A stretch of DNA of 64,000 bases, taken from an uncultured Thermodesulfobacteriota bacterium (GTDB lineage: Bacteria > Desulfobacterota > CAZCTP01). The notes beneath the pieces are model-generated. The model did not search any database, was not told where the DNA came from, and worked only from the letters and a program-made list of their open reading frames with translations. The stretch covers positions 10,384-74,383 of the forward strand of contig CAZCTP010000003.1 of assembly GCA_964501575.1 (NCBI GenBank). The letters run 5' to 3'. Shown piece after piece: positions 27,353-64,000 of the stretch. The translations under genes and the position numbers were made by a program. Every line of letters begins with the position of its first letter. The stretch's first letter is position 1.

Positions 27353-29329
27353 ATGGGAGTTTATCCTATTAATTTAAATGTATCTGTTGAATCCATATTA
27401 AAGGCAAAAGATAAATTTCTCAGAACAGGATTTATAGATAAAAGGGTTGTTCGTCAAATAATTGCGGATTCCTGGATCAGGTCTAGGGATTTTTACAATA
27501 TAGATCCGGAGAGTATAAATACCTCTACCTATTTAGATGATGCGGAATATAGGGAAAAATTGGATGAAAATGAATATCTTCTTAGATTTTCTATACCATT
27601 CTTAGAAAAGCTTATTCCATTTTTAAGAGAGGATGGGTATGTATTAGTATTATATTCAAAAGATGGTTATCATATATATCATTCAGGAGAGCTTTATCCT
27701 AAAGAGAAAAGAGTAATAAAGCTTTATGAAATTCTCAAGCGAGTATGTTGGAATGAGGAATATATAGGTACATCTCCATTTTCATTGGTAAAAAGACTAA
27801 GATCAGCGGTTCAGGTATTTGGACCGGAATATTATTGCAATATAATGTGTAACTTTTGTGGTTCTTTTGCACCTATTATAGTGGAAAACAATGAATTTAT
27901 AGGTGCAATAGGGATTACTTCCTATGGTAAGATACCTCACCCCCATACATTGGGTATAGCCATATCCGCTGCTTCAGCTATAGAGAATCATATAAAGCAT
28001 GAAAGAGTGAATGAAAGATTAAGATTTTATATTGAAAATATAAGGATTACTCTTAATTCCATGAAGGATGGTCTTGTGTGGACAGATGAAAATGGGAAGA
28101 TCATAGAGATAAATGAATCTGCTATAGAAATGCTCGGTATTATAGGAAAGGACGTAAAGGGTAAAAATGTTAAAGATATAGTTAATTCCTATCCTTCGTT
28201 ATCTGATTTAATAAAATCAGCGCTTTCTATGAAGAAAGTCCCTTCTGATGAGGAGATTATTGTGGAGTCTATTGATGGAATAAATAGACTCATTACTTCT
28301 ATAACGGCTGTTAAGATAGATGGTGGAGAATATATTGGTACGATTATATCATTAAAAAACATAAAGAGCATTAAAAAGATTGCTAAGAATATTGCATCTT
28401 ACGAAGCTAAGTTTTTACTCTCCGATATTGTAGGAAATAGTAAAACAATCAGAGAATTAAAGGAATATGTTTTACTTATTGCAAGGAGTGATTCTAATAT
28501 ATTAATTGAAGGTGAAAGCGGAACCGGTAAAGAGTTAATAGCTCATTGTATTCATAATTATAGTGATAGGAGTGAGGGGCCATTTGTTCCAATTAATTGC
28601 GCTGCGATTCCTCCGGAATTATTTGAAAGTATCCTTTTTGGATATGAGAAAGGGGCGTTTACGGGGGCCAAAGCAGAAGGAAGCCATGGAAAATTCGAGA
28701 TTGCCAATGGTGGGACACTATTCTTAGATGAAATAGGAGAACTCCCTTTTCATATGCAGTCAAAGCTATTGAGGGCAATATCAGAGGGGAGAATTGAGAA
28801 AATAGGTGGGAGAAGGCCAATAAATGTCGATGTAAGATTAATTTCTGCTACAAACAAATCCTTGCTGGATGAGATAGATAGTGGTAGATTTAGAAAAGAT
28901 TTATATTATAGAATAAATGTTTTTAATATAAAGACTCCTTCTCTTAGAGAGATTATAGATGATATTCCTCTATTAGTAGAATATTTTATAAAAAAATCTG
29001 GGAAGAAAATAAAATATATCTCAGAAGATTTTTATAATGTTCTTAAAGCATATTCATGGCCTGGTAATGTGAGGGAACTTGAAAATATTTTAGAGAGAGC
29101 TATTCATACTAGTAAAGATGGTATAATAGATATTAATTCCCTTCCTGAATATATTATAAACAACCAGGAATTCCTTTTACCTAAAAAGATTTTACCACTT
29201 TCAGAAATAGAGAGGAATGTTATAAAAATGGCTCTCGATATCTGTAAAGGCAATAAGAGTAAATCTGCAAAACTTTTAGGAATAGGAAGAGATACTCTAT
29301 ATAGGAAGATAAGGTCTTATCACATATAA
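27353..29329 (+). CDS. Sigma-54-dependent transcriptional activator (sensory N-terminal domain + PAS + AAA+ sigma54-interaction + HTH)
   Basis: 658 aa; GESGTGKE Walker A, GAFTGA sigma54-contact motif (EKGAFTGAK), C-terminal Fis-type HTH. Confidence 0.85.
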
Positions 29330-29517
29330 ATGTATTAATACAATACATTGTCTTATTATAGGATATTTTTATTTATAATTTTTAATCAGTATATGAGAAT
29401 ATTATTTTAATATTTTAGTTGTTTTATTTTTAATCTATTCTAATATTATGTCTTGAAATAATACATGCAAATTCATTCCTCTACACCTTTACCTTTGATT
29501 ATAGATACTTCTTATTA

Positions 29518-29533
29518 TGGCATGATAATTGCA
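29518..29533 (+). promoter_or_regulatory. Sigma-54 (-24/-12) promoter candidate TGGCAT-N5-TTGCA
   Basis: TGGCATgataaTTGCA: GG at 29519-29520 and GC at 29531-29532 with canonical 10-nt spacing. Located 200 bp downstream of a sigma-54 activator gene and about 17 nt upstream of the MoaD-like start. Confidence 0.5.
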
Positions 29534-29549
29534 TAATTATATTTTATAT

Positions 29550-29849
29550 ATGAAAATTAAGGTGAAGTTTTATGGAACAGTTAGAGATATAGTGAAGGAA
29601 AAAGAAGTTGAAATAGAGGGTAATGGAATATTAAACATTATGGACATTATAAATATTTTTATAGAGAGATATGGAAACAGGTTTAAAGAGAGAATTTTAA
29701 CTAATAATGGGAAGCTTCAGAGTTATGTAAGAATATTTATAAATGATGATCCTGTAGATTATAGAGAATTGGATAAGAAACTTATTAACAAAGGAGACTC
29801 AGAGATATTAATATATATATTACCAGCTCAAATGGGAGGATTATTATGA
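29550..29849 (+). CDS. MoaD/ThiS-family beta-grasp small protein with GG followed by two extra residues
   Basis: MKIKVKFYGTVRDIVKEKEVEIEG... aligns with the MoaD N-terminus (MIKVLFFAQVRE...); ends ...AQMGGLL. Stop overlaps the next gene start (ATGA). The upstream ATG at 29529 used by the ORF track would place the promoter inside the gene. Confidence 0.55.
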   Translation: MKIKVKFYGTVRDIVKEKEVEIEGNGILNIMDIINIFIERYGNRFKERILTNNGKLQSYVRIFINDDPVDYRELDKKLINKGDSEILIYILPAQMGGLL

Positions 29850-32413
29850 ATAATATAAAAGAGGATGTATGGATACCATCATCATGTAATATATGCTATG
29901 GAGGCTGTTCAATTTTAGCCCATAGAGTTAATGGGGTTTTAACAAAGATAGAAGGAAATCCAGAGAGTCCTATAGGTATGGGGAGATTATGTCCTAAGGG
30001 AGTATCCGGGATTATGATTTTATATGACCCTAATAGGGTGAATGTCCCATTAAAAAGGACAAATCCTGAGAAAGGATTTGGAGTTGATCCTAAATGGGTG
30101 GAAATTACCTGGGATGAAGCACTTGATACTATTGTAGAAAGGCTTAAAAAGATAAGGGAAGATGATCCAAGAAAGCTCTTCTTTATGGGTACCACAACAT
30201 GTGGGAATACAATGACATCTGGAGGGGTAACATTTATATCTGCCTTTGGTTCCCATAACTTCCTTGTTGGTGGAGGAGGTCTTCATTGTGGAAATGGTGC
30301 TCATCTTTTGAATGGTGTAATGCATGCATCATGGTCTTTAGTTCCTGATTTTGAATATTCTAACTATATTATATATTTTGGAGCAAGCAAAGGACATGCT
30401 GCAGGTCATGCAGCAAATTCTAATGCACAGAAGGCTGCTGATGCAAGGGCAAGGGGTGCAAAGTTTGTTGTTGTTGATCCAATGTGTAATTTTTCAGCAT
30501 CAAAGTCTGTTGAATGGATTCCTATTAAACCTGGGACTGATGGAGCATTCGCAATAGCAATTATAAATATACTTCTAAATGAGCTTAATATATATGATAG
30601 GGAGTATATAAAGAAACATACAAATGGTCCATATCTTATCAGACCCGATGGGTATTACATGAGAGATGAGAATGGAACTCCTTTAATATGGGATCCTGTT
30701 GATAATAGAGCAAAGCCTTACAATGACTTAAGTATAAAAGATCTTTCTATAAAGGGTGAATACGAAATTAGTGGAACTATCTGTAAACCAGGATTTCAGT
30801 TGCTTAAAGAACATGTTAGGAAATATACTCCTGAAGAGGTTTCAAGGATAACAACCATACCTCCAGATACAATAAGAAGAATAGCAAAAGAATTCGGAGA
30901 AGCAGCCCGAGTTGGAAGTAAAATAGTGATAGAAGGGGTAGAGCTTCCCTATAGACCTGCATGTGCAATATATTTTAGAGGAGCCCAGGGGCATAAGAAT
31001 TCTACATTAACGTGTATGGCAATAGAGCTTCTAAATCAGGTAGTTGGGGCTGCTGATGTCCCTGGTGGAGCACTCGGATTTACACCTGTTAGTTATGGCC
31101 ATCCAGATACCGGGAGACCCTATTTTGTTCCAAAGGAAGGGGAGGATGGAATAATGCTTACCGGAACATGGATGGTTCCTCATCTCCCATATCCACCTAA
31201 TGAACCAAGGGTCCCGGAGTCAATAGGGCTTGGAGAACTATTCCCTTTAGGTATGCTTACTCCTCTAACTGTTTCATCTGATCAGGAAGAGCTCTGGGAA
31301 AAGGTTGGACTTCCCTATAGGGTGGAGATGATAATCAATTTTGGATCAAACCCTATAATGAGTGTTGGTAATCCCGGGATAGTTGCTGAATCTATAAAGA
31401 GAATACCATTTATTGTATCCTTTGATATATTTCTTACAGAATTTTCACAATTTGCAGATATAGTTTTGCCTGATGGATGTTATCTTGAGAGGTTTGATCC
31501 GGGTCCAGCGTATCCACCAATTCTTAATCATCCAGCAGGTATGGGTGAATGGGGATGGCCGATAAGACAATCTGTTGTTGAACCGGCTTTTAAGAGAAGA
31601 AATTTTACAGAAGTTATGCTTGAAATTGCGGATAGGATAGGAATGAGAGACGATTTCTATGCTGTATTAAATCTCTTTTACGAACTTAAAGGGCCTTATA
31701 AACTTGATTCTAAAAGAGAATATACCTGGGAAGAGATATGCAACAATATTCTGAAGAATAATTTTGGGGAGGAGCATGATATAAATTGGTTCAGAAAGAA
31801 TGGTATTATAAAGTGGAAGAAAAGAGTTGAAGAGGTATATTGGAGGCCATTCTTAAATGTGAGGGTTCCAATATATTTTGAATATATTAGAAGAGTTGGT
31901 GATAAGGTTAAGGAAATTGCGGATAAATTGGATATTAAGCTCGATTATTCCTATTATCAGCCTTTACCAGATTACAGGCCCTGTGTATCACATCAGGTAG
32001 CTGATGAAAACTATGATTTATATGGATTCTATTACCGGGATGTGTTACACACAAACTCATTTACAATGGAAAATCCATGGCTTGATGAGGCTTCTTTAAT
32101 GAATCAGCATACCTATTATATCTCAATAAATTTGGATACCGGGAGAAAAAAAGGTATAAAGGATGGTGATACTATATTGGTAGAATCAACAAAGGGACGC
32201 AGGATAAAGGGTAAGGTAAAACTTATAGAGGGAATACATCCAGAGTGTCTTGGAATAGCTGCCTGTTCCGGTCATTGGAGTCCAAATATGCCTGTAGCTA
32301 AAGGTAAGGGGGTCCTTTTTAATGAACTCCTTGAGGTAGATCTTGAACATTCTGATCCAGCAAACCTTAATATGGATCTATGTGTTAAGGTGAGAATATA
32401 TAAGGAGGGTTAA
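29846..32413 (+). CDS. Molybdopterin (Mo/W-bisPGD) oxidoreductase catalytic subunit, PsrA/PhsA-like, no twin-arginine signal
   Basis: 855 aa; N-terminal FeS motif C-x2-C-x3-C...C (SSCNICYGGCS...GRLCPKG), MopB domains. N-terminus MNNIKEDVWIPSSC lacks an RR Tat motif. Confidence 0.85.
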   Translation: MNNIKEDVWIPSSCNICYGGCSILAHRVNGVLTKIEGNPESPIGMGRLCPKGVSGIMILYDPNRVNVPLKRTNPEKGFGVDPKWVEITWDEALDTIVERLKKIREDDPRKLFFMGTTTCGNTMTSGGVTFISAFGSHNFLVGGGGLHCGNGAHLLNGVMHASWSLVPDFEYSNYIIYFGASKGHAAGHAANSNAQKAADARARGAKFVVVDPMCNFSASKSVEWIPIKPGTDGAFAIAIINILLNELNIYDREYIKKHTNGPYLIRPDGYYMRDENGTPLIWDPVDNRAKPYNDLSIKDLSIKGEYEISGTICKPGFQLLKEHVRKYTPEEVSRITTIPPDTIRRIAKEFGEAARVGSKIVIEGVELPYRPACAIYFRGAQGHKNSTLTCMAIELLNQVVGAADVPGGALGFTPVSYGHPDTGRPYFVPKEGEDGIMLTGTWMVPHLPYPPNEPRVPESIGLGELFPLGMLTPLTVSSDQEELWEKVGLPYRVEMIINFGSNPIMSVGNPGIVAESIKRIPFIVSFDIFLTEFSQFADIVLPDGCYLERFDPGPAYPPILNHPAGMGEWGWPIRQSVVEPAFKRRNFTEVMLEIADRIGMRDDFYAVLNLFYELKGPYKLDSKREYTWEEICNNILKNNFGEEHDINWFRKNGIIKWKKRVEEVYWRPFLNVRVPIYFEYIRRVGDKVKEIADKLDIKLDYSYYQPLPDYRPCVSHQVADENYDLYGFYYRDVLHTNSFTMENPWLDEASLMNQHTYYISINLDTGRKKGIKDGDTILVESTKGRRIKGKVKLIEGIHPECLGIAACSGHWSPNMPVAKGKGVLFNELLEVDLEHSDPANLNMDLCVKVRIYKEG

Positions 32414-32414
32414 G

Positions 32415-33086
32415 ATGGTGAGATATGGGATGGTTATAGATCTCTTAAGATGCATAGGATGTTTCGGATGTCAGCTTGCATGCAAGGCTGAGAATGCCAC
32501 TCCAAAGGGAATTCTATGGGCAAGGGTTGAGGAGAAGGAGATAGGTAAATTTCCATCTGTAAGGAAAATATATCTTCCTCTGCTCTGTATGCATTGTAGA
32601 GAACCTGAGTGTGAAAAGGTATGTCCTACAAAGGCAACTACGAAAAGAGAAGATGGAATAGTGGATATTGATGATACAAAGTGCATAGGGTGTAGATATT
32701 GTATGACAGCATGTCCATATGGGTCAAGATATTTCATGGATGGAATTAAAAGTTATTTTGATAATGCTATTACTCCATATGAGGATTTTGGATATAAAAA
32801 GTGGCAAAAGGGTGTTACAGTTAAGTGCAATATGTGTAAGGATAGGATAGAGAACGGAATAAAGAGGGGGTTAAACCCTGGGATTGATAGAGCCGCAACC
32901 CCAGCCTGTGTGATAAACTGTATGAGTAAAGCGAGATACTTTGGAGATCTTGATGATCCAACGAGTGAAGTTTCAAGATTGATTGCAACTGGTCAGGCAT
33001 TTCAACTGCTTCCAGAGATAGGAACAGATCCTCAGGTTTATTATTTAGCCCCTGGAAGACTGATGCCTATACAATCACCACCATAG
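32415..33086 (+). CDS. 4Fe-4S ferredoxin-type electron-transfer subunit (PsrB/DmsB-like)
   Basis: 223 aa; four Cys cluster motifs (CIGCFGCQLAC, CMHCREPECEKVC, CIGCRYCMTAC, CNMCKDR...). Confidence 0.85.
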   Translation: MVRYGMVIDLLRCIGCFGCQLACKAENATPKGILWARVEEKEIGKFPSVRKIYLPLLCMHCREPECEKVCPTKATTKREDGIVDIDDTKCIGCRYCMTACPYGSRYFMDGIKSYFDNAITPYEDFGYKKWQKGVTVKCNMCKDRIENGIKRGLNPGIDRAATPACVINCMSKARYFGDLDDPTSEVSRLIATGQAFQLLPEIGTDPQVYYLAPGRLMPIQSPP

Positions 33087-33098
33087 GGAGGTTTTGAT

Positions 33099-33962
33099 AT
33101 GGATGTAACACAGACTATATGGAGATGGAAGGTAGCTTTTTATCTGTTTCTTGCAGGAGTTGGTGCCGGGAGTTATTTTATAGGAATTATTGAAGATTTT
33201 AGAGGGTATGATTCGGTGGCTACTATAGGTATCTGGCTCGGTGTTATCTTGGTATTTATATCTATCCTATTTTTACTCTGGGATCTTGGAAGACCTGAGA
33301 GATTTTATAAAGCAATAAATAATCCCAATTCATGGATCACAAAGGGTGTTTTTATACTCACTTTATTTGTTGTAGTGGGTATTGTTACTATTTTTATTGG
33401 TAATCCATTAAACTTTTATTTTAAAATTATTGGAATCATATTAGCTATAGCAATAGCTATATATACAGGGGTATTAATAGGAGTCGTTGCTGGAAGACCG
33501 ATATGGGGTAATTCAATGCTTCCTATACTTTTCTTAGTTTCAGCAATATCTACAGGAATAGGTGGAATAATGACTGTATATGTATTTAATATAGGAGACT
33601 TAAGTATTATTGATAGACTTGGATTGTTAGATATATTTCTGATAATATTAGAAGGGCTCGTTATATACCTATATCTTGTTATAATATTCTGGAGATTTCC
33701 AGAGAGTGTTAACATATTGATAAAGGGAAGACTCTCTCTCCAATTCTGGATAGGGCTTATATTTATAGGTCTTATTCTCCCATTGGTATTAGAATATATA
33801 AATCTATATACCGAAGTAGAGATAGTAAAGCTTCTTATTGCTTTTACAACTGGTATATCACTATTAATAGGTGGGTTTTTATTGAGAATTCTGATACTTG
33901 GAGCAGGGATTAGAAGACCTTTATATGTTGGGGTTCCCTTTTATGTACGTCCTGATGAGTGA
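33099..33962 (+). CDS. NrfD/PsrC-family integral membrane quinone-interacting subunit
   Basis: 287 aa, about 8 predicted TM helices, WRWKVAFYLFLAGVGAGSY N-terminal pattern typical of NrfD/PsrC. Confidence 0.75.
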   Translation: MDVTQTIWRWKVAFYLFLAGVGAGSYFIGIIEDFRGYDSVATIGIWLGVILVFISILFLLWDLGRPERFYKAINNPNSWITKGVFILTLFVVVGIVTIFIGNPLNFYFKIIGIILAIAIAIYTGVLIGVVAGRPIWGNSMLPILFLVSAISTGIGGIMTVYVFNIGDLSIIDRLGLLDIFLIILEGLVIYLYLVIIFWRFPESVNILIKGRLSLQFWIGLIFIGLILPLVLEYINLYTEVEIVKLLIAFTTGISLLIGGFLLRILILGAGIRRPLYVGVPFYVRPDE

Positions 33963-33973
33963 GGAGGGTAATT

Positions 33974-35239
33974 ATGCAGATTAGAAGGTTATATGAGAAA
34001 TTTTTATGGGTTGCAGAGCCAATAATATTAAAAATTGAGATTTTAAGAACAGGTTTAAAATTTACAGATGCTGCTAAGAATGCTCTAAAAGAGAGGGATG
34101 ATATATTATTTAAAGGATTCTGGCTATTTTCATATGATAGGGGAGAACCTGTTATGTATGGAGAGAAAATCCCTTTTCTTATAAGACTAAAAGATGAGAC
34201 TCCCATTCAGGTTAGAACAAATGAGAATTCTCCATATTATATAGATTATACTGATGGGAAATATATGCTTTGCGATCCTGATGGGCCACTTGAGGAAATT
34301 TTTTTTGATAGATCTCCAAAATATTATTCTAAAATTCTTTCAGATGGTACTCCAATGGCATCTATTGTCCAGGCAGTTGGCGATCTATTATTTGTAACAA
34401 TAAATAAATATTGCGAAATGTGGAAGGGTGGAAATCAGTGTCTGTTCTGTGATTTCAATGCCCAGACAAGAACTCAATCCCAAAAAGGGGAGGCTACAAT
34501 AGTAAGGAAAACTCCAGAAGTTATTGCAGATGTCTTGGAGATTGCATTCCATGAACCACAGTTCAGATATATGCTTATAACCGGCGGTTCAATTCTATCA
34601 TCTTATGAGGGTAAGAATGAAGTAGAGTATTATTGCGAACATTTAAATACTATAAGAAAGAGACTCAGGGTATGGTATCCAGCGGCATTTCAGATTGGTG
34701 CATTAAAAGAAGATGACTGGAAGAGAATATATGATACTGGAATTGGAACTGTTGAGCCAAATATAGAAGTGTGGGATAAAAGGCTATTTCAGATATTGTG
34801 TCCTGGTAAGGAGAAGGCGGTTGGATATGATGAATGGATAAGGAGAACTATTAAAGCTGTTGATATATTTGGACCTGGTAATGTTGTTCCAAACTTTGTA
34901 ACAGGGATTGAAATGGCAAAACCCTATGGATTTGAAAGATGGGAAGATGCTGTTAAATCTACATTGGATGGATTTGACTATTTGATGGATTATGGAGTCT
35001 TACCAAGGATGGATATGTGGTGTATAGAACCCAATTCTGTTCTTGCGAAATATAATCCAGAACCACCCCCTATAGAATATTATGTACATTTAGAAAAGGG
35101 ATATATGGAATTAAGGGAAAAGCATGACTTTATGACACTACAGGCGGGAATATCAAGATATTCTTATATCCATAACTGTGCTTGTGATTTCGCATACTAT
35201 CATGGGAATGGCCCCGGGTCAAAGAAGATACTTGGTTAA
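33974..35239 (+). CDS. Uncharacterised Cys-rich protein X1 (possible non-canonical radical SAM/TIM-barrel FeS enzyme); paralog of 62235..63512
   Basis: Strong SD GGAGGGT 6 nt before ATG 33974 (the track's GTG at 33959 overlaps the NrfD stop). Conserved with X2: FKGFWLFSYD.GEPVMYG, C-x9-C-x2-C (YCEMWKGGNQCLFCD), ITGG, EPNIEVW, ICPGK, MWCIE, C-terminal CxC. Confidence 0.5.
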   Translation: MQIRRLYEKFLWVAEPIILKIEILRTGLKFTDAAKNALKERDDILFKGFWLFSYDRGEPVMYGEKIPFLIRLKDETPIQVRTNENSPYYIDYTDGKYMLCDPDGPLEEIFFDRSPKYYSKILSDGTPMASIVQAVGDLLFVTINKYCEMWKGGNQCLFCDFNAQTRTQSQKGEATIVRKTPEVIADVLEIAFHEPQFRYMLITGGSILSSYEGKNEVEYYCEHLNTIRKRLRVWYPAAFQIGALKEDDWKRIYDTGIGTVEPNIEVWDKRLFQILCPGKEKAVGYDEWIRRTIKAVDIFGPGNVVPNFVTGIEMAKPYGFERWEDAVKSTLDGFDYLMDYGVLPRMDMWCIEPNSVLAKYNPEPPPIEYYVHLEKGYMELREKHDFMTLQAGISRYSYIHNCACDFAYYHGNGPGSKKILG

Positions 35240-35296
35240 ATAAAGTTTCAAGGGGAATACCCCTTTGAATCAAATTAATTAAAAAGGAGGTTTGAT

Positions 35297-35710
35297 ATGG
35301 CTAATATGACAAAAGAGGTAATGGATATGTTTAATAATCCAGCTGCTTCAAAAGTATTGGCTACAGTAGATTCAAATGGGAAGGTTCACGCAGTCCCCCA
35401 TGGATCTATAGTAGCTATCGGTCCTGATAGAGTAGCATTTGCAAAACTTGTTAAGGGGAAGACATTGGAGAATCTTGAATCTACTAAAAATGTTTCTGTA
35501 ACAGCCTTTGTTCCATCACAACAACCAGGAGAGTCTATAGGTTATCAGATTAAGGGGATATTTGAAGGACTTCAGAATTCCGGTCCACTATTTGATAACT
35601 ACCAATCAAAGATGCCACCTAATATGAAACTGGCAGGGGTTGGAACAATAAAGGTTGAAGAAGTCTATGAGGTAAGTCCTGGACCAAACTGCGGTAAGAG
35701 GCTTGCCTGA
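35297..35710 (+). CDS. PNPOx-like FMN-binding split-barrel family protein (paralog of 11738..12235)
   Basis: 137 aa; shares the ...VLATVDSNGKVHAVPHGS...VAFAKL...YQIKG pattern with the housekeeping-region paralog. Confidence 0.45.
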   Translation: MANMTKEVMDMFNNPAASKVLATVDSNGKVHAVPHGSIVAIGPDRVAFAKLVKGKTLENLESTKNVSVTAFVPSQQPGESIGYQIKGIFEGLQNSGPLFDNYQSKMPPNMKLAGVGTIKVEEVYEVSPGPNCGKRLA

Positions 35711-35736
35711 AAATTTAATATAAAAGGAGGTGTAAG

Positions 35737-38208: not shown

Positions 38209-38318
38209 AAAGAGCGGAAGTCCTGAAGTGCTGAGGAACGGAAGTGCGGAAGCAAAGACTTTAGATTTCTGAGTTTTCGTGCTTCTGTTCTCTTATAAAG
38301 TATAAAGGAGATAAAAAT

Positions 38319-39245: not shown

Positions 39246-39802
39246 ATCTTAAAAGGATTTTAAAACTTGATCCGGATAGAATAAGTTTAGGGACAAATAT
39301 AGCCCTTATAGGAGCAATAAGATTTGCAGTGAAAAATAAAAGTAGTGAAGTATACCCTGAACATATTATATATTCCCTTTTTACCATGGAGGATGCTGTT
39401 CTGCCTTTACTGATATCCAATCTTGGAGGCGATCCAGAAGAGGTTATTAGTAGTATAGAAAAGAGAATTAAAGATATTCAGGATAAAAAAAGAGTAGCTG
39501 ATAGAATTGAGAATGTTAAATTGTCTTTCAAATTAAGAAGGATAATAAATGAGGCTCTTAAGGAATCAGAGATGAGAGGAGAGCTTTTGTGTAATGATCA
39601 TCTTATGGTCGCTCTTTTTAAAGAAAAGGGTGGATTATTTTCGGAGATCCTTTTAAGTAATGGTATTAAGGAGTTTGATGTAAAACCCTTCAATTGTGGA
39701 GGATGTCCCAACGTATGTGAAGATATTATTGAATATATTGTAAACGGTGAGGTAATTGGAAGATATGGTGGGATATGTGGAACATGGAGGTTTAACCTAT
39801 GA
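39242..39802 (+). CDS. Stand-alone Clp N-terminal-domain (double Clp_N repeat) protein with Cys-rich C-terminal tail
   Basis: 186 aa; two Clp_N repeats (PEHIIYSLFTMEDAVLPLLISNLGGDPEEV and NDHLMVALFKEKGGLFSEILLSNGIKEF); tail C-x2-C-x3-C...C. ATGA overlap with the AE gene. Confidence 0.55.
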   Translation: MNLKRILKLDPDRISLGTNIALIGAIRFAVKNKSSEVYPEHIIYSLFTMEDAVLPLLISNLGGDPEEVISSIEKRIKDIQDKKRVADRIENVKLSFKLRRIINEALKESEMRGELLCNDHLMVALFKEKGGLFSEILLSNGIKEFDVKPFNCGGCPNVCEDIIEYIVNGEVIGRYGGICGTWRFNL

Positions 39803-39887: not shown

Positions 39888-39888
39888 G

Positions 39889-40457: not shown

Positions 40458-40532
40458 AATGAGAGAATATTTTTACTCTAATGATTTTAAAATTAATTTT
40501 TAATCTAATAATTTTGATTAAGGAGGTGCTTT

Positions 40533-42035: not shown

Positions 42036-42050
42036 TAAGAAGGATAGAAA

Positions 42051-56033: not shown

Positions 56034-57461
56034 ATGCCTTTCAATGATATAAGGGAGTTTATAGAAAGATTAAGAGAGACAGGAGATCTATTAGAGATTA
56101 ATAGAGAGGTCGACTGGAATCTTGAGGCAGGCGCTATAATGAGAAGGTGTAATGAAACAAATGAAAGGGCTCAACTTTTTAATAATATAAAGGGATATCC
56201 AGAAGGATACAGGTTATTTGGGAGTCCATTAGCAAATTTAAGAAGAGTCGCTATAGCACTCGAGATGTCTCCAGAATCCTCTTATACAGAAATATTAGAT
56301 GAGTATATTAAGAGGCGCAATAATATTATAAAGCCTATAATTGTGAGTGATGGTCCATGTAAGGAGAATATATATAAGGGAGAAGAGGTCGATCTGTTTA
56401 AATTTCCTTCTCCTATGATTCATGCAGGGGACGGAGGGCGTTATATAGGAACATTGGATGTAGGGGTATGTAAAGATCCGGACTCTGACTGGATAAATTG
56501 GGGTACATATAGGTTAATGATCCATGATAGAGATTCCATAGGTATATTTCTTATTCCTGCTCAACATGTTGGGATGATATATTCAAAGTATAAATCAAGC
56601 AATAAACCTATGGAATATGTTGCATTTATGGGCTGTGAACCAATAACAAATCTTGTTGCAACGACGGGGATACCCTATGGAGTGAGTGAAGTGGATGTAA
56701 TAGGAGCTGTTAGAAGAGAACCTTTAAAGGTGGTTAAATGTGAGACTGTTGACCTCTTTGTCCCTGCAAGCGCAGAGATTGTTATTGAAGGGGAGATACT
56801 TCCTCATGTCAGAAAGGATGAAGGACCATTTGGAGAAGGGGCTGGTTACCAGGTTACTGGAAGGGTTCCGAGACCAGTATTTAAAGTAAAAGCCATTACA
56901 CATCGAAATGCTCCAATACTTCCTGTTTCATGCATAGGTGTTCCTGTAGATGACAGTCATGTAGCAAGTAATATAGGATTTATATCAGGTATAAAGATAG
57001 CATTAGTTGAAGCTGGTATTCCAATTACTGGAATATATATGCCCCCAGAATCCGGGCTTTCCCTGTGTATTGTTTCAACAAAGACTCCGACTCCAAATAT
57101 AGCGAGAAGGATTGCAAGTTGTGTATGGGGAGATAAAAATGGCCAATATCTGCCCAAAATAGTAGTAGTTGATGAAGATATTGATCCAACAAATATGGCT
57201 CAGGTCATCCATGCATTTGCTACCAAGTGTCATCCATCAAGAGGGATAATGATTATGGATAATGTATTTAATTCTCCAATATTAGGATACTTAAGTAAGG
57301 AGGAGAGGACTTTAAGTAGTGGAAGCAATGTTTTGTTTGATTGTACATGGCCTAAAAGCTGGAAGACAGAAGATATTCCACCAAAATCCTCCTTTGACAA
57401 TATATACCCAGATGAGGTTAGAGAGATGGTTATATCTAATTGGAAGGAATATGGATTTTAG
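56034..57461 (+). CDS. UbiD-family (prenylated-FMN-dependent) decarboxylase/carboxylase
   Basis: 475 aa; MPFNDIREFIERLRETGDLLEINREVDWNLEAGAIMRR is the conserved UbiD N-terminus; no ubiX in window. Confidence 0.85.
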   Translation: MPFNDIREFIERLRETGDLLEINREVDWNLEAGAIMRRCNETNERAQLFNNIKGYPEGYRLFGSPLANLRRVAIALEMSPESSYTEILDEYIKRRNNIIKPIIVSDGPCKENIYKGEEVDLFKFPSPMIHAGDGGRYIGTLDVGVCKDPDSDWINWGTYRLMIHDRDSIGIFLIPAQHVGMIYSKYKSSNKPMEYVAFMGCEPITNLVATTGIPYGVSEVDVIGAVRREPLKVVKCETVDLFVPASAEIVIEGEILPHVRKDEGPFGEGAGYQVTGRVPRPVFKVKAITHRNAPILPVSCIGVPVDDSHVASNIGFISGIKIALVEAGIPITGIYMPPESGLSLCIVSTKTPTPNIARRIASCVWGDKNGQYLPKIVVVDEDIDPTNMAQVIHAFATKCHPSRGIMIMDNVFNSPILGYLSKEERTLSSGSNVLFDCTWPKSWKTEDIPPKSSFDNIYPDEVREMVISNWKEYGF

Positions 57462-57555: not shown

Positions 57556-57930
57556 ATGAAATATGTAACAATTGTAAATATTAATCCATCTCAGGCAGAA
57601 AGGCTTAGAGAGTCTATTCCAGCAGAGGCTTTTCTACATCTTGAAGAGGCTATTCACTCAGGAAGAACTCCCTCGGAGGAAGAGTTATTAAGTAAGGGGG
57701 TGGAAAAGGAATTCGCAGAGCTTTTAGTAGCTCATCTAAGCTATCTAAAAAGTTTAAATGATAGAGGTATCCTTGAGAGCGGAGGGCCATGCAAAGGATT
57801 TAATAAAGCTGTTAATATATTTGAGGCTGATTCAGAGGAAAAGGCGAGAGAATTTCAAGAGGGGGACCCGTTCTTTAAGTATGGGATGCTTTCAGATTAT
57901 GAGATCTTAGAGTGGAATAAAGTATTTTAG
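57556..57930 (+). CDS. Small YciI/Dabb-like protein (tentative)
   Basis: 124 aa; size and hydrophobic pattern with ...DRGILESGGP... resemble YciI-like ferredoxin-fold proteins common in aromatic catabolic clusters. Weak assignment. Confidence 0.35.
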   Translation: MKYVTIVNINPSQAERLRESIPAEAFLHLEEAIHSGRTPSEEELLSKGVEKEFAELLVAHLSYLKSLNDRGILESGGPCKGFNKAVNIFEADSEEKAREFQEGDPFFKYGMLSDYEILEWNKVF

Positions 57931-58100: not shown

Positions 58101-59727
<1,627 letters not shown>

Positions 59728-59731
<4 letters not shown>

Positions 59732-61149
59732 AAGGAAAGGTTTTATTAATTGTATTAATAGCTTTATTTATAGATAAAAGAGCTTTCTCCTTTAATATTG
59801 CTTCATTCAATCCCATAGGTAATAGCCTTAGTAAAATAAAGAAGAGTATACCAAATCTGGATATTAAAGGGTTTATTGAAAATGAAACCGATATAGATCT
59901 TCATGGACATAGATATAATACCCAGAAGATAGAGTGGCTTTCAGAGATTGATCTAAGATATAGGTTATCCAGTGATATGGAGATAGTGAACATCTATAAT
60001 TTTCTATATGATTCAATATTTGACTGGGAGGCAAAACATGTATTCTCTTCAGAAACAGAAAGGAAGTTAAGAGTATACAGGAATGGAAAGAGGATATTAA
60101 GAGAGTTATATCTTGACTGGGCACTTAATGACTGGAGATTTATTTTAGGAAAACAACAGGTTGTTTGGGGAAAGGTTGATGGAAGAAAGGTTCTTGATAT
60201 GATAAATCCAGAGGATTTTAGAGAGGGTCCATGGGATGCTGCAATGGATGATTGGAAGTATACAAGAATTCCGTTATGGATGGCAAATATATCATGGAGT
60301 GGAGAGATATATAACCTCCAATTTTTATGGATTCCTGACTTTGAGCCAAATCCCTTAATACCTGAGGACTGGATATGGGGATTTAAGAGAAGACCAGATC
60401 CATCGATTAGAACGGTAATTAGAGATATTATTAAACCCGATGAAGATAGGATTGAAAATCATGAATTCGCTCTAAAGTTAGAATTTGAGCAAAATGGATG
60501 GGATATATTCTTTGTTTACTTTTATGGATGGAGTTATAATCCTACTCTCTTTAGAAAGGATACTATAATATCCACTAATAAAGGAGATCCAATAACATTT
60601 GTTCTTGAACCAAGATATACCCGCTTGCACAGATTCGGCTTTGCCCTTGATAAAGCATTCTCCTTTTTAGGATATGATTGGGTTGGAAGAATAGAATCTG
60701 TTTACAAAAAGAATCTATATATAGCCACTGATAATGAACCACTGAATGAGGATGGTCAGACTCAAAGGGACAGGCTTTTAACATCGCTTGCTTTAGAGAC
60801 TATAATCTTTGTAGACTGGGATATTCTTCTCACTATTCTACCTGAATATACATTTGGAAGTATGGAGGGATTGAGATTTATGCCGATAAGAACACCTCTT
60901 AATCACTGGGAAAATTATTATTCTCTTACAATAACAAAGAGTTTTTATTATGACAGGGGTACTTTATCCCTTACAATGGCTTATGGTGACCATGGAGAGG
61001 AAAGGCTTAGAACTCGTATATTCTTTAGGCTTTCCGATTTTATAACATTGAGTGTCGGGATTCATTCCTTCTGGGGGAAGGATAGTACAGTTACAGGACA
61101 ATTCTCAAAGAATGACGAAGTAGAATTCGGGATAAAATATGAATTTTAA
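59728..61149 (+). CDS. Secreted/outer-membrane protein, DUF1302-like, second copy
   Basis: 473 aa; signal peptide MKGKVLLIVLIALFIDKRAFSF; C-terminal aromatic residue (…GIKYEF); paired with DUF1329-like gene as in the first module. Confidence 0.4.
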
Positions 61150-61159
61150 GGAGGAGAGT

Positions 61160-62233
61160 ATGATGAGAAAAATAATTTTTTTAATCCCCTTTATATTTTT
61201 CCAATCTTTATTATATGCAGGTCAATGGAAGAACCCAAGGGATATCATAGGGGATCCTATGATTGTCAGGCTACAACAGGGCAGGAAAGAGCTTACTTCA
61301 GAGGAAAAGGAAGAAATAAAGAGATATGGATATACAGGATTGGAGATAATGAGCTATGTGATGTGCAACAAGGACCCCGGAAAAGACAATGAGGGATTCT
61401 ATAAAAGTATATCTGTAGATTCATCAGGAAATATCCAGATCAGAGAGGTTATAAGAAGGAGAAAATATTATTATAAGGATTATAGGGCAAGGTTTACCTA
61501 TGATGGGATTAAGCCCGGGGATGTAGTTTACAAAAGAGCAGGTATGCAGTTATATCCCCCTCGTGATAGAGGAACCACATTTATAAGAATTGCCTATCTA
61601 AAATCAAAGGATAATTATAAGCCAGATACCCTTTTCGTAAGGTCTATATCTCTGAAGAGGATAAGGCAATATCCAACCCCTAACAATCAGGATAAATTTT
61701 ACAAAGAGGATATGACTCATGATGACTGGTATGCAAGAGAGGCGTGGCAGGAAAATCACAGGATTATAGGAGAGGATAATATAAGGGGTAAGGACTGCTT
61801 TGTTATAGAGAGCAAAAACTGGTATTATCCGAATTACTATCTCAGCAAGAGGGTAACCTGGGTTGAGAAGAAGAACTTTCTTGATCTACATGAAGAACAG
61901 TTTGATAGGAAGGGCAGGCTATTTAAAATAATGGACAAAGAGTGGGTCCAGGTTCCACCATGGAACTATTGGGTGAGAAAAAACTGGGATATTATAGATC
62001 TCAGCACAAAATCAAGAACCATTGAATATACCTATGATTGGATATTTGATCAGGGTTTTACAGAAAAGAAATTCTCTAAGGCGATGCTTAAGAATGAGAA
62101 GGTGTGGAGAGAACCTAAAAATCCGCCTCCATCCATTAGAAAACTTTCAGATCTACCTAATCCACCACAGGTAAGGTCAGAGTTCTGGAAGAGGATGGAT
62201 GTAGCACCAAATATTTTTGGGAGGGGGAAGTAA
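61160..62233 (+). CDS. Secreted protein, DUF1329-like, second copy
   Basis: Start ATG 61160 preceded by AGGAGG; signal peptide MMRKIIFLIPFIFFQSLLYAGQ; shares size, signal peptide and W/Y-rich composition with 45460..46716. Confidence 0.4.
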   Translation: MMRKIIFLIPFIFFQSLLYAGQWKNPRDIIGDPMIVRLQQGRKELTSEEKEEIKRYGYTGLEIMSYVMCNKDPGKDNEGFYKSISVDSSGNIQIREVIRRRKYYYKDYRARFTYDGIKPGDVVYKRAGMQLYPPRDRGTTFIRIAYLKSKDNYKPDTLFVRSISLKRIRQYPTPNNQDKFYKEDMTHDDWYAREAWQENHRIIGEDNIRGKDCFVIESKNWYYPNYYLSKRVTWVEKKNFLDLHEEQFDRKGRLFKIMDKEWVQVPPWNYWVRKNWDIIDLSTKSRTIEYTYDWIFDQGFTEKKFSKAMLKNEKVWREPKNPPPSIRKLSDLPNPPQVRSEFWKRMDVAPNIFGRGK

Positions 62234-62234
62234 T

Positions 62235-63512
62235 ATGGAGCTATTTGAAGCATTTAAAAGATTTTCGGATGTTGCAGAGCCTATAATTATAAAATCTGAT
62301 GTTGTAAGACTCGGGCTAAGATTCAGTGACAGAGCAAAGGAGTCCTTCAAAGAGAGGAAGGATATTCTATATAAAGGATTCTGGCTATTTTCCTATGATA
62401 AGGGAGAACCTGTTATGTATGGAGATAATATACCATTTCTTATAATCCTTGATGATGGAACAGAAGAGGGAACGACGATTCAGGTTAGAACATCTGAGGA
62501 TACCCCGTATATGGTTGATATAGTTGATGGAGAATATAAGCTATTCTGGAATGAAGAACCTATAGGAAGGGTCGGTTTTGATAAGCCCCCAAAGTTTTTT
62601 GAGAGGATGATAGATGGAATTCCTATGGCATCCCTGGTTCAGGGAGCAAGGGATACTCTATTTGTTACTGCTAATAAACATTGTGACTATTTCTCAATAA
62701 AGAAGGAGTGCCTGTTCTGTGATCTTACACCCCATGCCGCTGCCCAGAAAAAGAAGGGTGAGACAATGATATTAAGAAAAAAAGGGGATATGGTTGCTGA
62801 AGTCCTGGAAATTGGGCTTCATGAGTCGAGGTTCAGGCATCTATTTATAACCGGAGGGACATTCCTGAAGGAATATGAGGGTAAGAAGGAACTGGATTGG
62901 TATTGTGATTTCTTAGAATCCATAAGAAAAAGGCTAAAGGTATGGTATCCTGTAAATTTTCAGATAGGAGCCCTTGATGATGAGGGATGGAAGAGATTAA
63001 AGGATACAGGAATTACCAATATTGAACCAAATATTGAGGTATGGAATAGGAAGCTATTTGAAATAATATGTCCTGGTAAGGCTTCCCATGTCGGGTATGA
63101 TGAATGGATAAAAAGGACTATAAGGGCTGTTGATTTCTTTGGAGTCGGGAATGTTAACCCGAACTTTGTTTCAGGAGTTGAGATGGCAAAACCCTTTGGA
63201 TTTACCGATGTAGATGAGGCTGTTGAATCCACAGTTAATGGATTTGACTTCCTTATGAGTCATGGTGTTCTTCCAAGACAGGGGGACTTCTGGTGTATTG
63301 AGCAAAAATCAAAGCTTTCCCACTCTGAACCACCACCTTTAGAGTATTTTATAAAACTTGGAATAGGATATCTTGAGGTAAGAGAGAAGTATGGATTTAT
63401 GTCTCCAACTCTATCATTGTGTAGATATTGTCTCCCTCATGGGACAGAGTATGACTTTGAATACTGGCATGGTAATGGGCCATATTCAAAGAAAAATGAA
63501 AAAGGAGGGTAA
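62235..63512 (+). CDS. Uncharacterised Cys-rich protein X2 (paralog of X1 at 33974..35239)
   Basis: Start ATG 62235 preceded by GGGAGGGGG; about 60% identical to X1 by eye, with the same conserved blocks (YKGFWLFSYDKGEPVMYG, C-x8-C-x2-C in HCDYFSIKKECLFCD, ITGG, EPNIEVW, ICPGK, FWCIE). Confidence 0.5.
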   Translation: MELFEAFKRFSDVAEPIIIKSDVVRLGLRFSDRAKESFKERKDILYKGFWLFSYDKGEPVMYGDNIPFLIILDDGTEEGTTIQVRTSEDTPYMVDIVDGEYKLFWNEEPIGRVGFDKPPKFFERMIDGIPMASLVQGARDTLFVTANKHCDYFSIKKECLFCDLTPHAAAQKKKGETMILRKKGDMVAEVLEIGLHESRFRHLFITGGTFLKEYEGKKELDWYCDFLESIRKRLKVWYPVNFQIGALDDEGWKRLKDTGITNIEPNIEVWNRKLFEIICPGKASHVGYDEWIKRTIRAVDFFGVGNVNPNFVSGVEMAKPFGFTDVDEAVESTVNGFDFLMSHGVLPRQGDFWCIEQKSKLSHSEPPPLEYFIKLGIGYLEVREKYGFMSPTLSLCRYCLPHGTEYDFEYWHGNGPYSKKNEKGG

Positions 63513-63513
63513 C

Positions 63514-64000
63514 ATGGATTTAATAGAACCTTTAGCAGAAAATATAGTCAATATAAATTATAATGATCTCCCAGAAGATATTATAGATATCACGAAGATG
63601 TGCATCCTTGATTCTATAGGAACAATGATTGCAGGTTCAGATGCCCCCGGATGCAGGAATATAGTGGAAATAGTTAAAGAATGGGGTGGTAAGGAGGAAT
63701 CCACAATAATGATATATGGGGGTAAAGTTCCAGCGCATGATGCTGCTTTAGCAAATGCAGTTATGGCAAGGGCTCTTGACTTTGATGATGGGGTTGATAA
63801 GGGGATGCATATGAGTTCATCTTTAATCCCAACCGCATTTGCAGCAGGAGAAAAGATAGGAGGAATTAATGGTAAAGAATTTCTGACTGCTATCGCATTA
63901 GGAACAGATATTGCAGTCAGGATAAGTAAGGCAACACTTGATTATCATGGATTTGATCCAACATTAACTTGTGGTATATTTGGAACAACAGCCTGTGCAG
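63514..64000 (+). CDS. MmgE/PrpD-family protein (2-methylcitrate dehydratase-like), N-terminal part, runs off window
   Basis: MDLIEPLAENIVNINYNDLPEDIIDITKMCILDSIGTMIAGSDAPG... matches the MmgE/PrpD N-terminal domain. Confidence 0.7.
   Translation, partial: MDLIEPLAENIVNINYNDLPEDIIDITKMCILDSIGTMIAGSDAPGCRNIVEIVKEWGGKEESTIMIYGGKVPAHDAALANAVMARALDFDDGVDKGMHMSSSLIPTAFAAGEKIGGINGKEFLTAIALGTDIAVRISKATLDYHGFDPTLTCGIFGTTACA

Follow-up and report, generated by a model that had tools for sequence, protein, structure and literature searches.

We describe a gene island in a 64,000-nucleotide (nt) stretch of contig CAZCTP010000003.1 from an uncultured Thermodesulfobacteriota bacterium; this whole stretch is called the window below. 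About 28 genes, all on the + strand, run from position 27353 to the window end, downstream of a sigma-54 activator and one -24/-12 site. Among them are two glycyl radical enzymes (GRE1 and GRE2), which we place in a large uncharacterised clade next to indoleacetate decarboxylase (IAD). We tentatively read the island as a locus for the anaerobic catabolism of an arylacetate-type hydrophobic acid, or of two related ones, in which the GREs would be decarboxylases and a molybdenum complex an acyl-CoA alpha-oxidase. We consider this reading plausible, if still somewhat short of probable. The putative catalytic assignments draw on similarity at the family level, on a handful of positions in the active sites and on the surrounding genes. 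The island measures at least 57 kb, at least 20 kb of it lying beyond the window end in the source contig (JGI 3300038380, Ga0434945_000178, 95.5 kb). This downstream extension was read from locus L088 of that contig (window position = contig position - 11336), and about 85 kb were examined in total. An original prediction, made from the DNA letters of the window, had named gene families and positions that were all recovered on the + strand by open reading frame (ORF), Pfam and NCBIfam searches (Table 1). It had also held that the combination fits no described pathway; our literature searches gave no match and no paper found in them describes this gene combination. Overall, judging from family assignments, the island is built from known superfamilies but uncharacterised subfamilies.

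Two glycyl radical enzymes of a clade next to IAD

GRE1 and GRE2 possess both the PFL-like domain (PF02901, 653 bits for GRE1 and 628 bits for GRE2) and the glycyl radical domain (PF01228, 102 and 92 bits), together with the glycine of an RVAGFS motif, a cysteine loop and a cognate activase, and by these features they are complete members of the GRE superfamily. As predicted, the two full-length enzymes share one activase, no second one being found in the window or in L088. The predicted lack of the small subunits of X-succinate synthases was also observed, since no HPAD- or BSS-type small ORF adjoins either GRE gene (gaps of 110 and 91 nt).

Profile searches, which the original prediction had proposed as a check, left both GREs below every curated family cutoff. 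The best of all NCBIfam models was that of IAD (NF033718), with 870 bits for GRE1 and 750 bits for GRE2 against a cutoff of 1100, followed by the general PFL2-3 model (653 and 577 bits); the model of 4-hydroxyphenylacetate decarboxylase (HPAD) gave 640 and 561 bits and its cutoff of 1150 was not reached. Ten GRE relatives behaved alike on the IAD model (723-871 bits, all below 1100). They include proteins of 'Deltaproteobacteria bacterium DG_8', which is the nearest and has one of each GRE type, and of Anoxybacter, Ignavibacteria and archaea; the nearest relatives are 60% identical to GRE1 and 57% to GRE2. Because the two GREs and these ten relatives all fall below the IAD cutoff, we place them not in IAD itself but in a large and uncharacterised neighbouring clade. 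A scan of a genome collection with back-translated GRE1 patterns, which hold generic GRE motifs, returned 80 loci, all at most 43% identical and without synteny. A 2026 review of GREs lists four decarboxylases (HPAD, PAD, IAD and AAD) and no class fitting this clade.

Regarding the active site, Arg194 of GRE1 is kept in 116 of 118 clade members. In the HMMER match to HPAD (2y8n), judged by where the alignment starts and stops (query 2-186 against chain 190-378), it stands at the position of HPAD Arg223, to which we infer it to be equivalent. Both HPAD Arg223 and IAD Arg226 belong to the active site (PMC13450708; PMC13232127). Arg226, the homologue of HPAD Arg223, stacks on the substrate ring in IAD (PMC13232127), where His514 hydrogen-bonds the indole N-H (PMC6181972; PMC13232127). 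Besides this arginine, the Glu1 residue of the IAD and HPAD dyad is present (Glu468 in GRE1, Glu478 in GRE2), and the position inferred to match HPAD Glu637 and IAD Leu616 is hydrophobic across the whole clade. GRE1 and GRE2 share with the arylacetate decarboxylases (IAD, HPAD, PhdB/PAD and AAD) the PFL-like fold, the Gly radical domain, the Cys-x-Glu loop and a dedicated activase. Like IAD, they have no small subunit and carry a hydrophobic residue where IAD has Leu616. In contrast to IAD, they are about 40 residues shorter, have His514 replaced and score well below 1100. Their setting also differs, as the known decarboxylases occur in a fermentative GRE-activase-MFS cassette, whereas GRE1 and GRE2 lie in a respiratory-type island with molybdenum enzymes and envelope modules.

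The X-succinate synthases (BSS, ASS and MAS) were the most distant class-I-type matches in the PDB (TutD 325 bits, MasD 342 bits and 8iof 361 bits), and their beta and gamma FeS small subunits are missing from the island. The best PDB match of GRE1 was the B12-independent glycerol dehydratase (GDH), with 590 bits. This match would suit dehydratase-like 1,2-eliminases or isomerases, the aldehyde or ketone product of which would pass to SDR, aldehyde:ferredoxin oxidoreductase (AFOR) or XDH-type enzymes. The CXE motif, common to eliminases and isomerases (PMC13450708), and SDR and AFOR genes as the most regular neighbours of the clade agree with such a function. We nevertheless judge it very unlikely. 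In the alignment to GDH (1r8w), His164 is replaced by Arg194, His281/Ser282 by Phe/Gly, and Asp447, which occupies the Cys+14 position where IAD has His514, by Thr (Leu in GRE2). The pocket is hydrophobic, and the models of HypD, CutC, HpsG and HpfG score 200-350 bits below the IAD model. A narrower role of the GREs as diol dehydratases was rejected, as the substrate-binding residues of GDH are replaced despite the CXE motif and the PDB match.

A decayed third GRE copy had been predicted and is present as a relic of GRE1 type. Its two ends show 73-78% and 95% amino-acid identity to those of GRE1, with 90% nucleotide identity over the 3' part. In this C-terminal part (57 codons, 47825-47998) the differences are mostly synonymous, and an ATG-initiated ORF for 46 amino acids (47858-47998), much shorter than GrcA, spans the glycyl-radical motif. 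This part could be a case of recent decay or a retained mini 'spare-part' peptide. As the SDR gene of the window lies directly before it, the relic is probably the remnant of an SDR-coupled copy.

Two small genes accompany GRE1 and the activase. The Clp_N-domain protein ends in a cysteine-rich tail (CGGCPNVCED...GGICGTW) and was not seen beside the other activases examined; its position and sequence suggest a chaperone- or adaptor-like partner in GRE activation. A sister sample (L002) likewise has the PNPOx-like gene immediately before GRE1.

Gene neighbourhoods of related GREs

Homologs of the window SDR (42-45% identical) adjoin a GRE gene in four independent contexts (L003, L093, L094 and L097). 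In L003 and L097, the GRE is accompanied by SDR and two AFOR genes, and L097 has in addition a VorB-type 2-oxoacid:ferredoxin oxidoreductase with an ACT protein near its GRE1-like gene. In L094, SDR, a UbiD-family protein and Amidohydro_2 stand by a GRE1-like gene, and L093 holds RND, DUF1329, DUF1302 and BNR-like genes, a FAD_binding_4 flavoprotein, a GRE2-like gene, SDR and AFOR. Among more distant GREs, that of L004 has a thiamine pyrophosphate (TPP) enzyme nearby, that of Anoxybacter (L095) has 2-hydroxyacyl-CoA dehydratase genes, and that of L096 has an activase only. Geranylgeranyl-reductase-family flavoproteins adjoin related GREs in L003 and L004. Overall, the theme of these neighbourhoods is 2-oxoacid, aldehyde and acid chemistry, which suits a putative acid decarboxylase whose acids need not be aromatic.

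A Tat-less molybdenum complex with a MoaD-like partner

The N-terminus of the Mo-bisPGD (bis-pyranopterin guanine dinucleotide) catalytic subunit runs straight into a Cys motif at residue 14. No twin-arginine (Tat) motif was found in any of 120 full-length relatives of this subunit (55-66% identical), which come from Chloroflexota, Methylomirabilota/Rokubacteria, Acidobacteriota and others. Some of these relatives, at about 60% identity, are annotated as 'related to phenylacetyl-CoA:acceptor oxidoreductase'. Cys148, the candidate metal ligand, aligns with the metal-ligand Cys of ArrA. Another contig, L091, carries the same four genes in the same order (ThiS-like, Mo, FeS and NrfD subunits, 41%, 63%, 69% and 43% identical to those of the window), and its ThiS-like protein of 106 amino acids ends in GG and scores above the ThiS cutoff. 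Since this four-gene order is kept in L091, the MoaD-like gene belongs to the Mo module.

The original prediction spoke of a PsrABC-like complex facing the cytoplasm. An NrfD-type trio without Tat signal was indeed found, but its membership of the Psr/Phs group did not hold: the best NCBIfam model, PhsA, gave 249 bits against a cutoff of 694, and the best PDB matches, PhsA and PsrA, cover mainly the N-terminal 250 residues. The complex resembles PsrABC/PhsABC in its A-B-C gene order, NrfD-type anchor and Cys at the Mo-ligand position, and differs from them in having no Tat signal. As this signal is missing across the whole family, a Psr/Phs-type sulfur reductase operon was rejected.

Rhee and Fuchs reportedly described PadBCD, the phenylacetyl-CoA:acceptor oxidoreductase, in 1999 as a Mo-FeS enzyme bound to the membrane, its subunits measuring about 93, 27 and 26 kDa; the predicted window subunits of 855, 223 and 287 amino acids fit these sizes. 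In the Pad pathway, PadBCD oxidises phenylacetyl-CoA to phenylglyoxylate (PMC5109826). Like PadBCD of Thauera/Aromatoleum, the window complex has Mo-bisPGD, FeS and NrfD-anchored membrane subunits, three in all, and no Tat motif. As the window complex is likewise without export signal, its active site should face the cytoplasm, which a CoA-ester substrate requires; a CoA ligase gene also lies in the same island. Unlike PadBCD, the window module has the MoaD/ThiS-like gene as a conserved fourth member, and neither padEFGHI nor a PaaK-type padJ.

The XDH-family Mo-binding subunit had been described as an orphan. This is true within the window only, as a paralog that is 43% identical lies downstream together with FAD and FeS subunits. 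An HcrABC enzyme was not recovered: the alpha subunit scores 767 bits against a cutoff of 995 (TIGR03194), and the FAD subunit has no continuous HcrB match. L090 carries a PadB-like relative (66% identical) and, 7 kb away, an XDH-type Mo subunit that shares 48% identity with that of the window. We also observed an unusual ABC system (ABC_tran, an ABC2 membrane protein and DUF7088/ABC_transp_aux) both in L090 (L090:3165-7965, where DUF4340 is added) and in L094 (L094:780-4060). It stands beside the PadB-like gene in the former and the GRE1-like gene in the latter, an indirect link between both enzyme families.

Proposed catabolism of an arylacetate-type acid

The best hits at family level lean to aromatic or aryl-acid chemistry and not to isoprenoid chemistry. 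They comprise the IAD/HPAD-like GREs, the PadBCD-like Mo enzyme, proteins resembling the alpha subunits of 4-hydroxybenzoyl-CoA reductase and phenylphosphate carboxylase, and the Fdc/HudA-like UbiD. The UbiD-family enzyme scores 391 bits against a cutoff of 565 for the phenylphosphate carboxylase alpha subunit (PpcA-like), and its best PDB matches are HudA/PA0254 and Fdc1 (about 296 bits). As no UbiX gene was found in the window or in L088, the UbiX partner providing prenylated flavin mononucleotide (prFMN) must lie elsewhere.

In the catabolism that we propose, the acid would cross the envelope via the DUF1302, DUF1329, BNR and RND proteins, or the same proteins would expel a toxic hydrophobic product. 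The single activase would put the glycyl radical on both GREs, which would then decarboxylate the acid, either in a Kolbe-type reaction or through H abstraction, and so yield a methyl-substituted hydrophobic product. The Ctm-like flavoprotein(s), the SDR and the XDH-family Mo enzyme could oxidise the methyl group of this product stepwise to a carboxylate, and UbiD may take off or put on a carboxyl group. A parallel branch would consist of the CoA ligase and the Mo-FeS-NrfD complex, which faces the cytoplasm; this branch would oxidise the alpha-methylene of the acyl-CoA and deliver electrons to the quinone pool, in a manner like that of PadBCD with phenylacetyl-CoA. The TPP enzyme, MmgE/PrpD and the radical SAM proteins might act further downstream.

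Several points weigh against an arylacetate-type acid as the substrate. No island enzyme reaches a curated equivalog cutoff. The likeness of the GREs to IAD, HPAD and PhdB comes from model scores, spacing and match end-points. At the position of IAD His514 (Cys+14, located by counting from the Cys), GRE1 has Thr480 and GRE2 has Leu, and the second glutamate of HPAD, which binds the phenol (Glu2, Glu637), is absent, with Leu582 at its presumed position. Moreover, the pocket residues of GRE1 and GRE2 are unlike those of their own nearest relatives, and their specificities may therefore be their own. For the Mo complex, the term PadB-like comes from source annotation and subunit architecture. Genes for padEFGHI, a PaaK-type padJ ligase, benzoyl-CoA reductase and UbiX were not found in the approximately 85 kb. 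The downstream FAD subunit matches HcrB with 138 bits against 405, in two separate stretches, and the VorB-type enzyme of L097 points to branched-chain and not aromatic 2-oxoacids. If one acid were both decarboxylated and alpha-oxidised, the two reactions would be in competition. Finally, the relic GRE, a split CrtI gene and a frameshifted small gene mark an island that is partly decaying.

CrtI-like flavoproteins and a terpenoid alternative

Of the three CrtI-family flavoproteins announced in the original prediction, all three loci were found, the third as a split gene. The two ORFs of CrtI-like c are separated by a 72-nt gap and are 38% (N-terminal part) and 31% (C-terminal part) identical to CrtI-like b, compared with which they lack about 48 residues. 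L087, L088 and L089, which are independent assemblies, all show exactly this split, and it is therefore no assembly error. The three proteins are distant from CrtI itself (50 bits). In CtmAB and sterol delta-24 desaturase (COG1233), the His of the motif G-F-L/R-X-N/S-T/L-H-A carries a covalent flavin (PMC11061730; PMC4109377). The window proteins share with these enzymes a phytoene-desaturase-like fold, and two diverged paralogs could form a heterodimer. In contrast, the motif His, compared by the published motif only, is present in one of the three copies, and the window has no ctmEF-type ferredoxin or reductase genes, unlike CtmAB.

These flavoproteins raise the alternative of a route for a terpenoid, an isoprenoid or another hydrocarbon, which would combine Ctm-like allylic hydroxylation or desaturation, a new GRE transformation and hydrocarbon import. 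The GFKHDIHS motif of CrtI-like b fits the flavin motif of limonene dehydrogenase CtmAB and sterol delta-24 desaturase (PMC11061730; PMC4109377). CrtI-like a and b, 25% identical to each other, flank GRE2 and resemble CtmA/CtmB and alpha/beta pairs. The geranylgeranyl-reductase-family flavoproteins beside related GREs in L003 and L004, the hydrophobic pocket positions of the GREs and the high expression of DUF1302/DUF1329/RND clusters in a benzene degrader (PMC13101534) would also be in line with it. However, the motif His is missing from CrtI-like a and from the split CrtI-like c, and the conservation of Arg194 points to a ligand that is anionic or aromatic. Terpene genes of the mrc or geo type were not found, and the Ctm likeness is judged by the published motif. 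As for hydrocarbons in general, the X-succinate synthases stand furthest from the GREs (325-342 bits, and 361 bits for 8iof, against 590 bits for GDH), and beta and gamma subunits are lacking. On balance, we regard this route as unlikely. The isoprenoid substrate to which the original prediction inclined is not established by a motif His in one CrtI-like protein out of three and a geranylgeranyl-reductase-family flavoprotein on two contigs with related GREs.

Envelope modules

In the arylacetate-type reading, the two envelope modules may serve either direction of transport. The same four families (DUF1302, BNR/Ycf48-like, RND/MMPL and DUF1329) show cofitness in Pseudomonas (bioRxiv 10.1101/2020.07.04.188060), and they form the 'Nanopod' cluster of a benzene degrader, in which DUF1302, DUF1329 and RND genes are highly expressed (PMC13101534). 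The window set resembles the 'Nanopod' cluster (ORM2a) and the Pseudomonas genes PP_0765/0766 and PP_2018/2019 in the adjacency of the four families and their tie to hydrophobic-compound metabolism, and differs from both in being duplicated and placed inside an enzyme operon. Identity to other examples is low, at 22-39% for the counterparts in L093. The uptake of a substrate, as originally proposed for these modules, is not established, the direction being open in the 'Nanopod' and Pseudomonas cases too (PMC13101534; bioRxiv 10.1101/2020.07.04.188060). Among the ORM2 clusters, only the 'Nanopod' transport cluster resembles the window modules. The benzene 'Magic' cluster of ORM2 (PMC13101534), with its acyl-CoA synthetase, hot-dog hydratase, GlcDEF-like complex and CoA transferase, is unlike the locus and was rejected.

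Probable variant radical SAM proteins and the MmgE/PrpD module

The protein X1, predicted as an uncharacterised FeS-like protein, is present, and its identity was corrected to a probable variant radical SAM protein with a paralog at 62235. Both carry CX8CX2C in place of the radical SAM CX3CX2C, and the three Cys are invariant in 58 members of a family of about 500 relatives, none of which has a functional name. A PDB sequence search with X1 gave no relative, even at E up to 1. The AlphaFold model of X1 (pLDDT score 95.4) matches full-barrel radical SAM enzymes over about 236 of 421 residues (HydG 17.4, LipA 17.2, PylB 16.5, ThiH 15.1 and NosL 15.0), and its N-terminal 130 residues form an extra domain.

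A metagenome scan with both paralogs led to one locus, L100 (Ga0082335_1001806, 57% GC), which gives no basis for frequencies. L100 holds a GntR regulator, MmgE/PrpD (57% identical), a CoA ligase (45%), two tandem radical SAM paralogs (64% and 61%), a solute-binding protein, an acyl-CoA dehydrogenase, a second ligase and Amidohydro_2. The module (L100:1635-7377) sits behind the GntR regulator in an unrelated high-GC organism. Since L100 keeps the radical SAM, PrpD and ligase genes together, they represent a third conserved module. Other contigs also carry two members of the CX8CX2C family, for example P0410/P0426 and P0359/P0385.

Regulation and architecture of the island

The activator had been called NtrC/XylR-type. 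It is a sigma-54 activator (PF00158, 229 bits), and the likeness to XylR was not upheld, the best full-length NCBIfam models being PrdR (392 bits) and DhaR (350 bits); a weak MimR_N match is also on record. The -24/-12 promoter predicted after the activator was found as a near-perfect site, TGGCATGATAATTGCA, which is one of two sites with at most one mismatch in the 64 kb and the sole intergenic one. Placed behind the activator gene, it precedes by 17 nt the ATG (29550) of the first structural gene, the MoaD/ThiS-like one. An AAA+ activator domain and a site with -24 GG and -12 GC, as in a sigma-54 regulon unit, are thus both present. No further good intergenic sigma-54 site was found in the window or in the next 21 kb (L088). 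Besides the palindrome ATGTATTAATACAATACAT, a related half-site occurs at 29457-29466, upstream of the -24/-12 element; judging by their sequences, both are possible binding sites of the activator. Scans with Rfam (including the Moco riboswitch) and for tRNAs gave no match. Scans for sigma-70 promoters and for terminators gave about as many hits as expected by chance, so that boundaries of transcription units could not be drawn.

Table 1. Features of the island and their positions in the window (aa, amino acids)
Feature	Position	Strand	Basis and remarks
Sigma-54 enhancer-binding activator	27353-29329	+	N-terminal sensor, PAS, Sigma54_activat AAA+, HTH_8 (Pfam)
Palindrome ATGTATTAATACAATACAT, candidate activator binding site	29330-29348	+	Inverted-repeat search; ~180 bp upstream of -24/-12 site
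Sigma-54 -24/-12 promoter-like site TGGCATGATAATTGCA	29518-29533	+	TGGCAT-N5-TTGCA, 1 mismatch to TGGCAC-N5-TTGCW
MoaD/ThiS-like small protein, 99 aa	29550-29849	+	ThiS E=0.009; ends in MGGLL
Mo/W-bisPGD catalytic subunit, Tat-less, PadB/PsrA-like, 855 aa	29846-32413	+	Pfam; candidate metal ligand Cys148
Four-cluster-type 4Fe-4S electron-transfer subunit, 223 aa	32415-33086	+	Fer4_11 and related families
NrfD/PsrC-type membrane quinone-interacting subunit, 287 aa	33099-33962	+	PF03916, 109 bits
Variant radical SAM protein X1 (CX8CX2C)	33974-35239	+	NF045502, 219 bits (cutoff 125)
PNPOx-like split-barrel flavin-binding protein	35306-35710	+	PF01243, 28.6 bits
GRE1, 823 aa	35737-38208	+	Cys466-x-Glu468, Gly801, Arg194
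GRE activating enzyme (radical SAM, ferredoxin-like insert)	38319-39245	+	TIGR02494, 344 bits (cutoff 174)
Clp_N-domain protein, Cys-rich C-terminus	39242-39802	+	PF02861; 4-nt overlap with activase stop
Frameshifted copy of small protein	39961-40457	+	tblastn in two frames, 35-37% identity to 182-aa downstream protein
Envelope module, four genes	40533-46716	+	Pfam
DUF1302	40533-42035	+	Pfam
BNR/Ycf48-like	42051-43067	+	Pfam
RND/MMPL	43064-45370	+	Pfam
DUF1329/LolA-like	45460-46716	+	Pfam
SDR oxidoreductase	46743-47525	+	Pfam; member of conserved SDR+GRE pair
GRE relic, third GRE1-type copy	47610-47998	+	N-terminal 74 + C-terminal 57 codons, internal deletion, different frames
XDH-family Mo-binding subunit	48054-50345	+	4-hydroxybenzoyl-CoA reductase alpha-like, TIGR03194, 767 bits (cutoff 995)
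CrtI/CrtISO-family flavoprotein a	50376-51842	+	Motif GFKFDVAIH, no His at Ctm position
GRE2, 833 aa	51884-54385	+	Cys476-x-Glu478, Gly811; 53% identical to GRE1
CrtI/CrtO-family flavoprotein b	54476-56029	+	GFKHDIHS, His at Ctm/sterol delta-24 desaturase flavinylation position
UbiD-family (de)carboxylase	56034-57461	+	TIGR00148, 304 bits (cutoff 245); three UbiD domains
YciI-like protein	57556-57930	+	Pfam, NCBIfam
CrtI-like c, split	58119-59731	+	ORFs 58119-59168 (349 aa) and 59240-59731 (163 aa); GFKWDVFG, no motif His
Second envelope pair	59728-62233	+	Pfam; DUF1302b 59728-61149, DUF1329/LolA-like b 61139-62233
Second variant radical SAM	62235-63512	+	54-55% identical to X1
MmgE/PrpD-family gene, 5' part	63514-64000	+	Start 63469 or 63514; runs off window

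The first 27 kb of the window hold ordinary chromosomal genes: GlyS beta, pyruvate phosphate dikinase, ValRS, NadC, BirA, CoaX, homoserine dehydrogenase, deoxyhypusine synthase, a radical SAM/helix-hairpin-helix gene and a Cas6-like gene. The last two (25243-27248) lie directly upstream of the activator gene, and neither further cas genes nor a CRISPR array were noticed elsewhere in the window. The listed genes of the island are all present, but the locus does not end at 64000 as the original prediction had it. Past this point follow MmgE/PrpD (473 amino acids; in L088 the full gene has MmgE_PrpD_N and MmgE_PrpD_C domains), an AMP-forming CoA ligase (PRK06187 type) and a TPP enzyme (PRK08327, 646 bits). 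Further downstream lie a 437-aa protein without family, a small protein of 182 amino acids (L088:17764-18312) and XDH-type FAD, 2Fe-2S and Mo subunits. Genes identical to those of the island were also found in 3300038381, 3300023444 and SRR9849951.

The GC content is about 0.37 inside the island (window 30000-64000) and about 0.31 in the housekeeping flank (window 1-30000), a step compatible with an island acquired from another lineage. The Zeldovich relation reportedly links the fraction of the residues IVYWREL to the optimal growth temperature; at 0.422 across the island proteins (27353-64000), this composition suggests host growth near 60 C, as in a thermophile. The DUF1302 and DUF1329 proteins have signal peptides, which implies a diderm host cell. 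Altogether, the host is an uncultured diderm anaerobe, probably a thermophile, and the island is chromosomal.

As far as can be read from its genes, the island is made of two diverged paralogous halves with the GRE relic at their junction. Half A (29550-47525) holds the MoaD-like, Mo-FeS-NrfD, radical SAM, PNPOx-like, GRE1, activase, Clp_N and small genes, the envelope module and SDR. Half B (47610 onward) begins with the GRE relic, XDH-Mo, CrtI-like a, GRE2, CrtI-like b, UbiD, YciI and CrtI-like c and continues with the envelope pair, radical SAM, PrpD, ligase, TPP enzyme, 437-aa protein, small gene and XDH trimer. Each half has a GRE, a variant radical SAM protein, a molybdenum enzyme, a DUF1302/DUF1329 module and a small protein without family. 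Identities between the halves are 53% for GRE1/GRE2, 54-55% for X1 and the second radical SAM protein, 43% for the XDH Mo subunits, about 36% (35-37%) for the small protein and 22% for DUF1302 a/b. The small gene listed at 40113 is the frameshifted paralog of the 182-aa protein. This small protein is apparently lipoprotein-like and occurs once per half.

Three sub-modules recur on unrelated contigs, and their full union was found in this organism only. They are SDR and GRE, with or without AFOR, UbiD or DUF1302/DUF1329/RND genes; MoaD with the Mo-FeS-NrfD genes; and radical SAM with PrpD and CoA ligase. The comparison of genome neighbourhoods, another check proposed with the original prediction, showed that several gene links recur elsewhere, and the locus is therefore not a pure chance juxtaposition. 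A single pathway, as originally suggested, is not established, since the links of the GREs with the Mo enzyme, radical SAM and CrtI-like genes were seen in this organism only.

The island could instead be a catabolic hotspot, in which independent modules for different substrates stand side by side and form no single pathway. Each sub-module is found alone, without the others, in other organisms, and the cross-module links were found on the contigs of this organism only. The GC difference between island (about 0.37) and flank (about 0.31) and the duplications, relic gene, split gene and frameshifted gene agree with such an assembly, and 'catabolic hotspots' are documented in Desulfococcus multivorans (PMC5109826). 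In contrast, the approximately 28 genes are co-oriented, with junctions that are mostly very short or overlapping, behind one sigma-54 site and with no other good intergenic one, and a single activase serves both GREs. Some cross-links also recur: L090 joins a PadB-like gene to XDH-Mo, and L093 joins a GRE to RND/DUF1302/BNR. Weighing both sides, a hotspot without a common pathway appears rather unlikely to us.

Significance of the island

Only a short list of enzyme types is available for the anaerobic breakdown of inert hydrophobic compounds, so a new GRE branch matters. The clade of GRE1 and GRE2, none of whose members has been assigned a reaction, is large and extends over Desulfobacterota-like bacteria, Ignavibacteria, Bacteroidota, Chloroflexota, Firmicutes and archaea. 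Also widespread and unstudied are the CX8CX2C radical SAM family and the family of Tat-less Mo-FeS-NrfD complexes with a MoaD-like partner. The location of three orphan families behind one promoter offers an experimental handle for assigning their functions together. In a bolder version, which we hold to be improbable, GRE1 and GRE2 would found a new GRE class, sister to the arylacetate decarboxylases and acting on a hydrophobic substrate of a non-classical kind, for example a methyl-arene or an acid that is alicyclic or derived from an isoprenoid. With the cytoplasm-facing, quinone-linked Mo enzyme, its dedicated MoaD-like subunit and the CX8CX2C radical SAM family, they would form a previously unrecognised oxygen-independent route. 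If the arylacetate-type reading is true, with arylacetate decarboxylation taking place in a respiring sediment or vent bacterium, volatiles of the toluene, cresol and skatole type would be degradation intermediates and not only fermentation end products.

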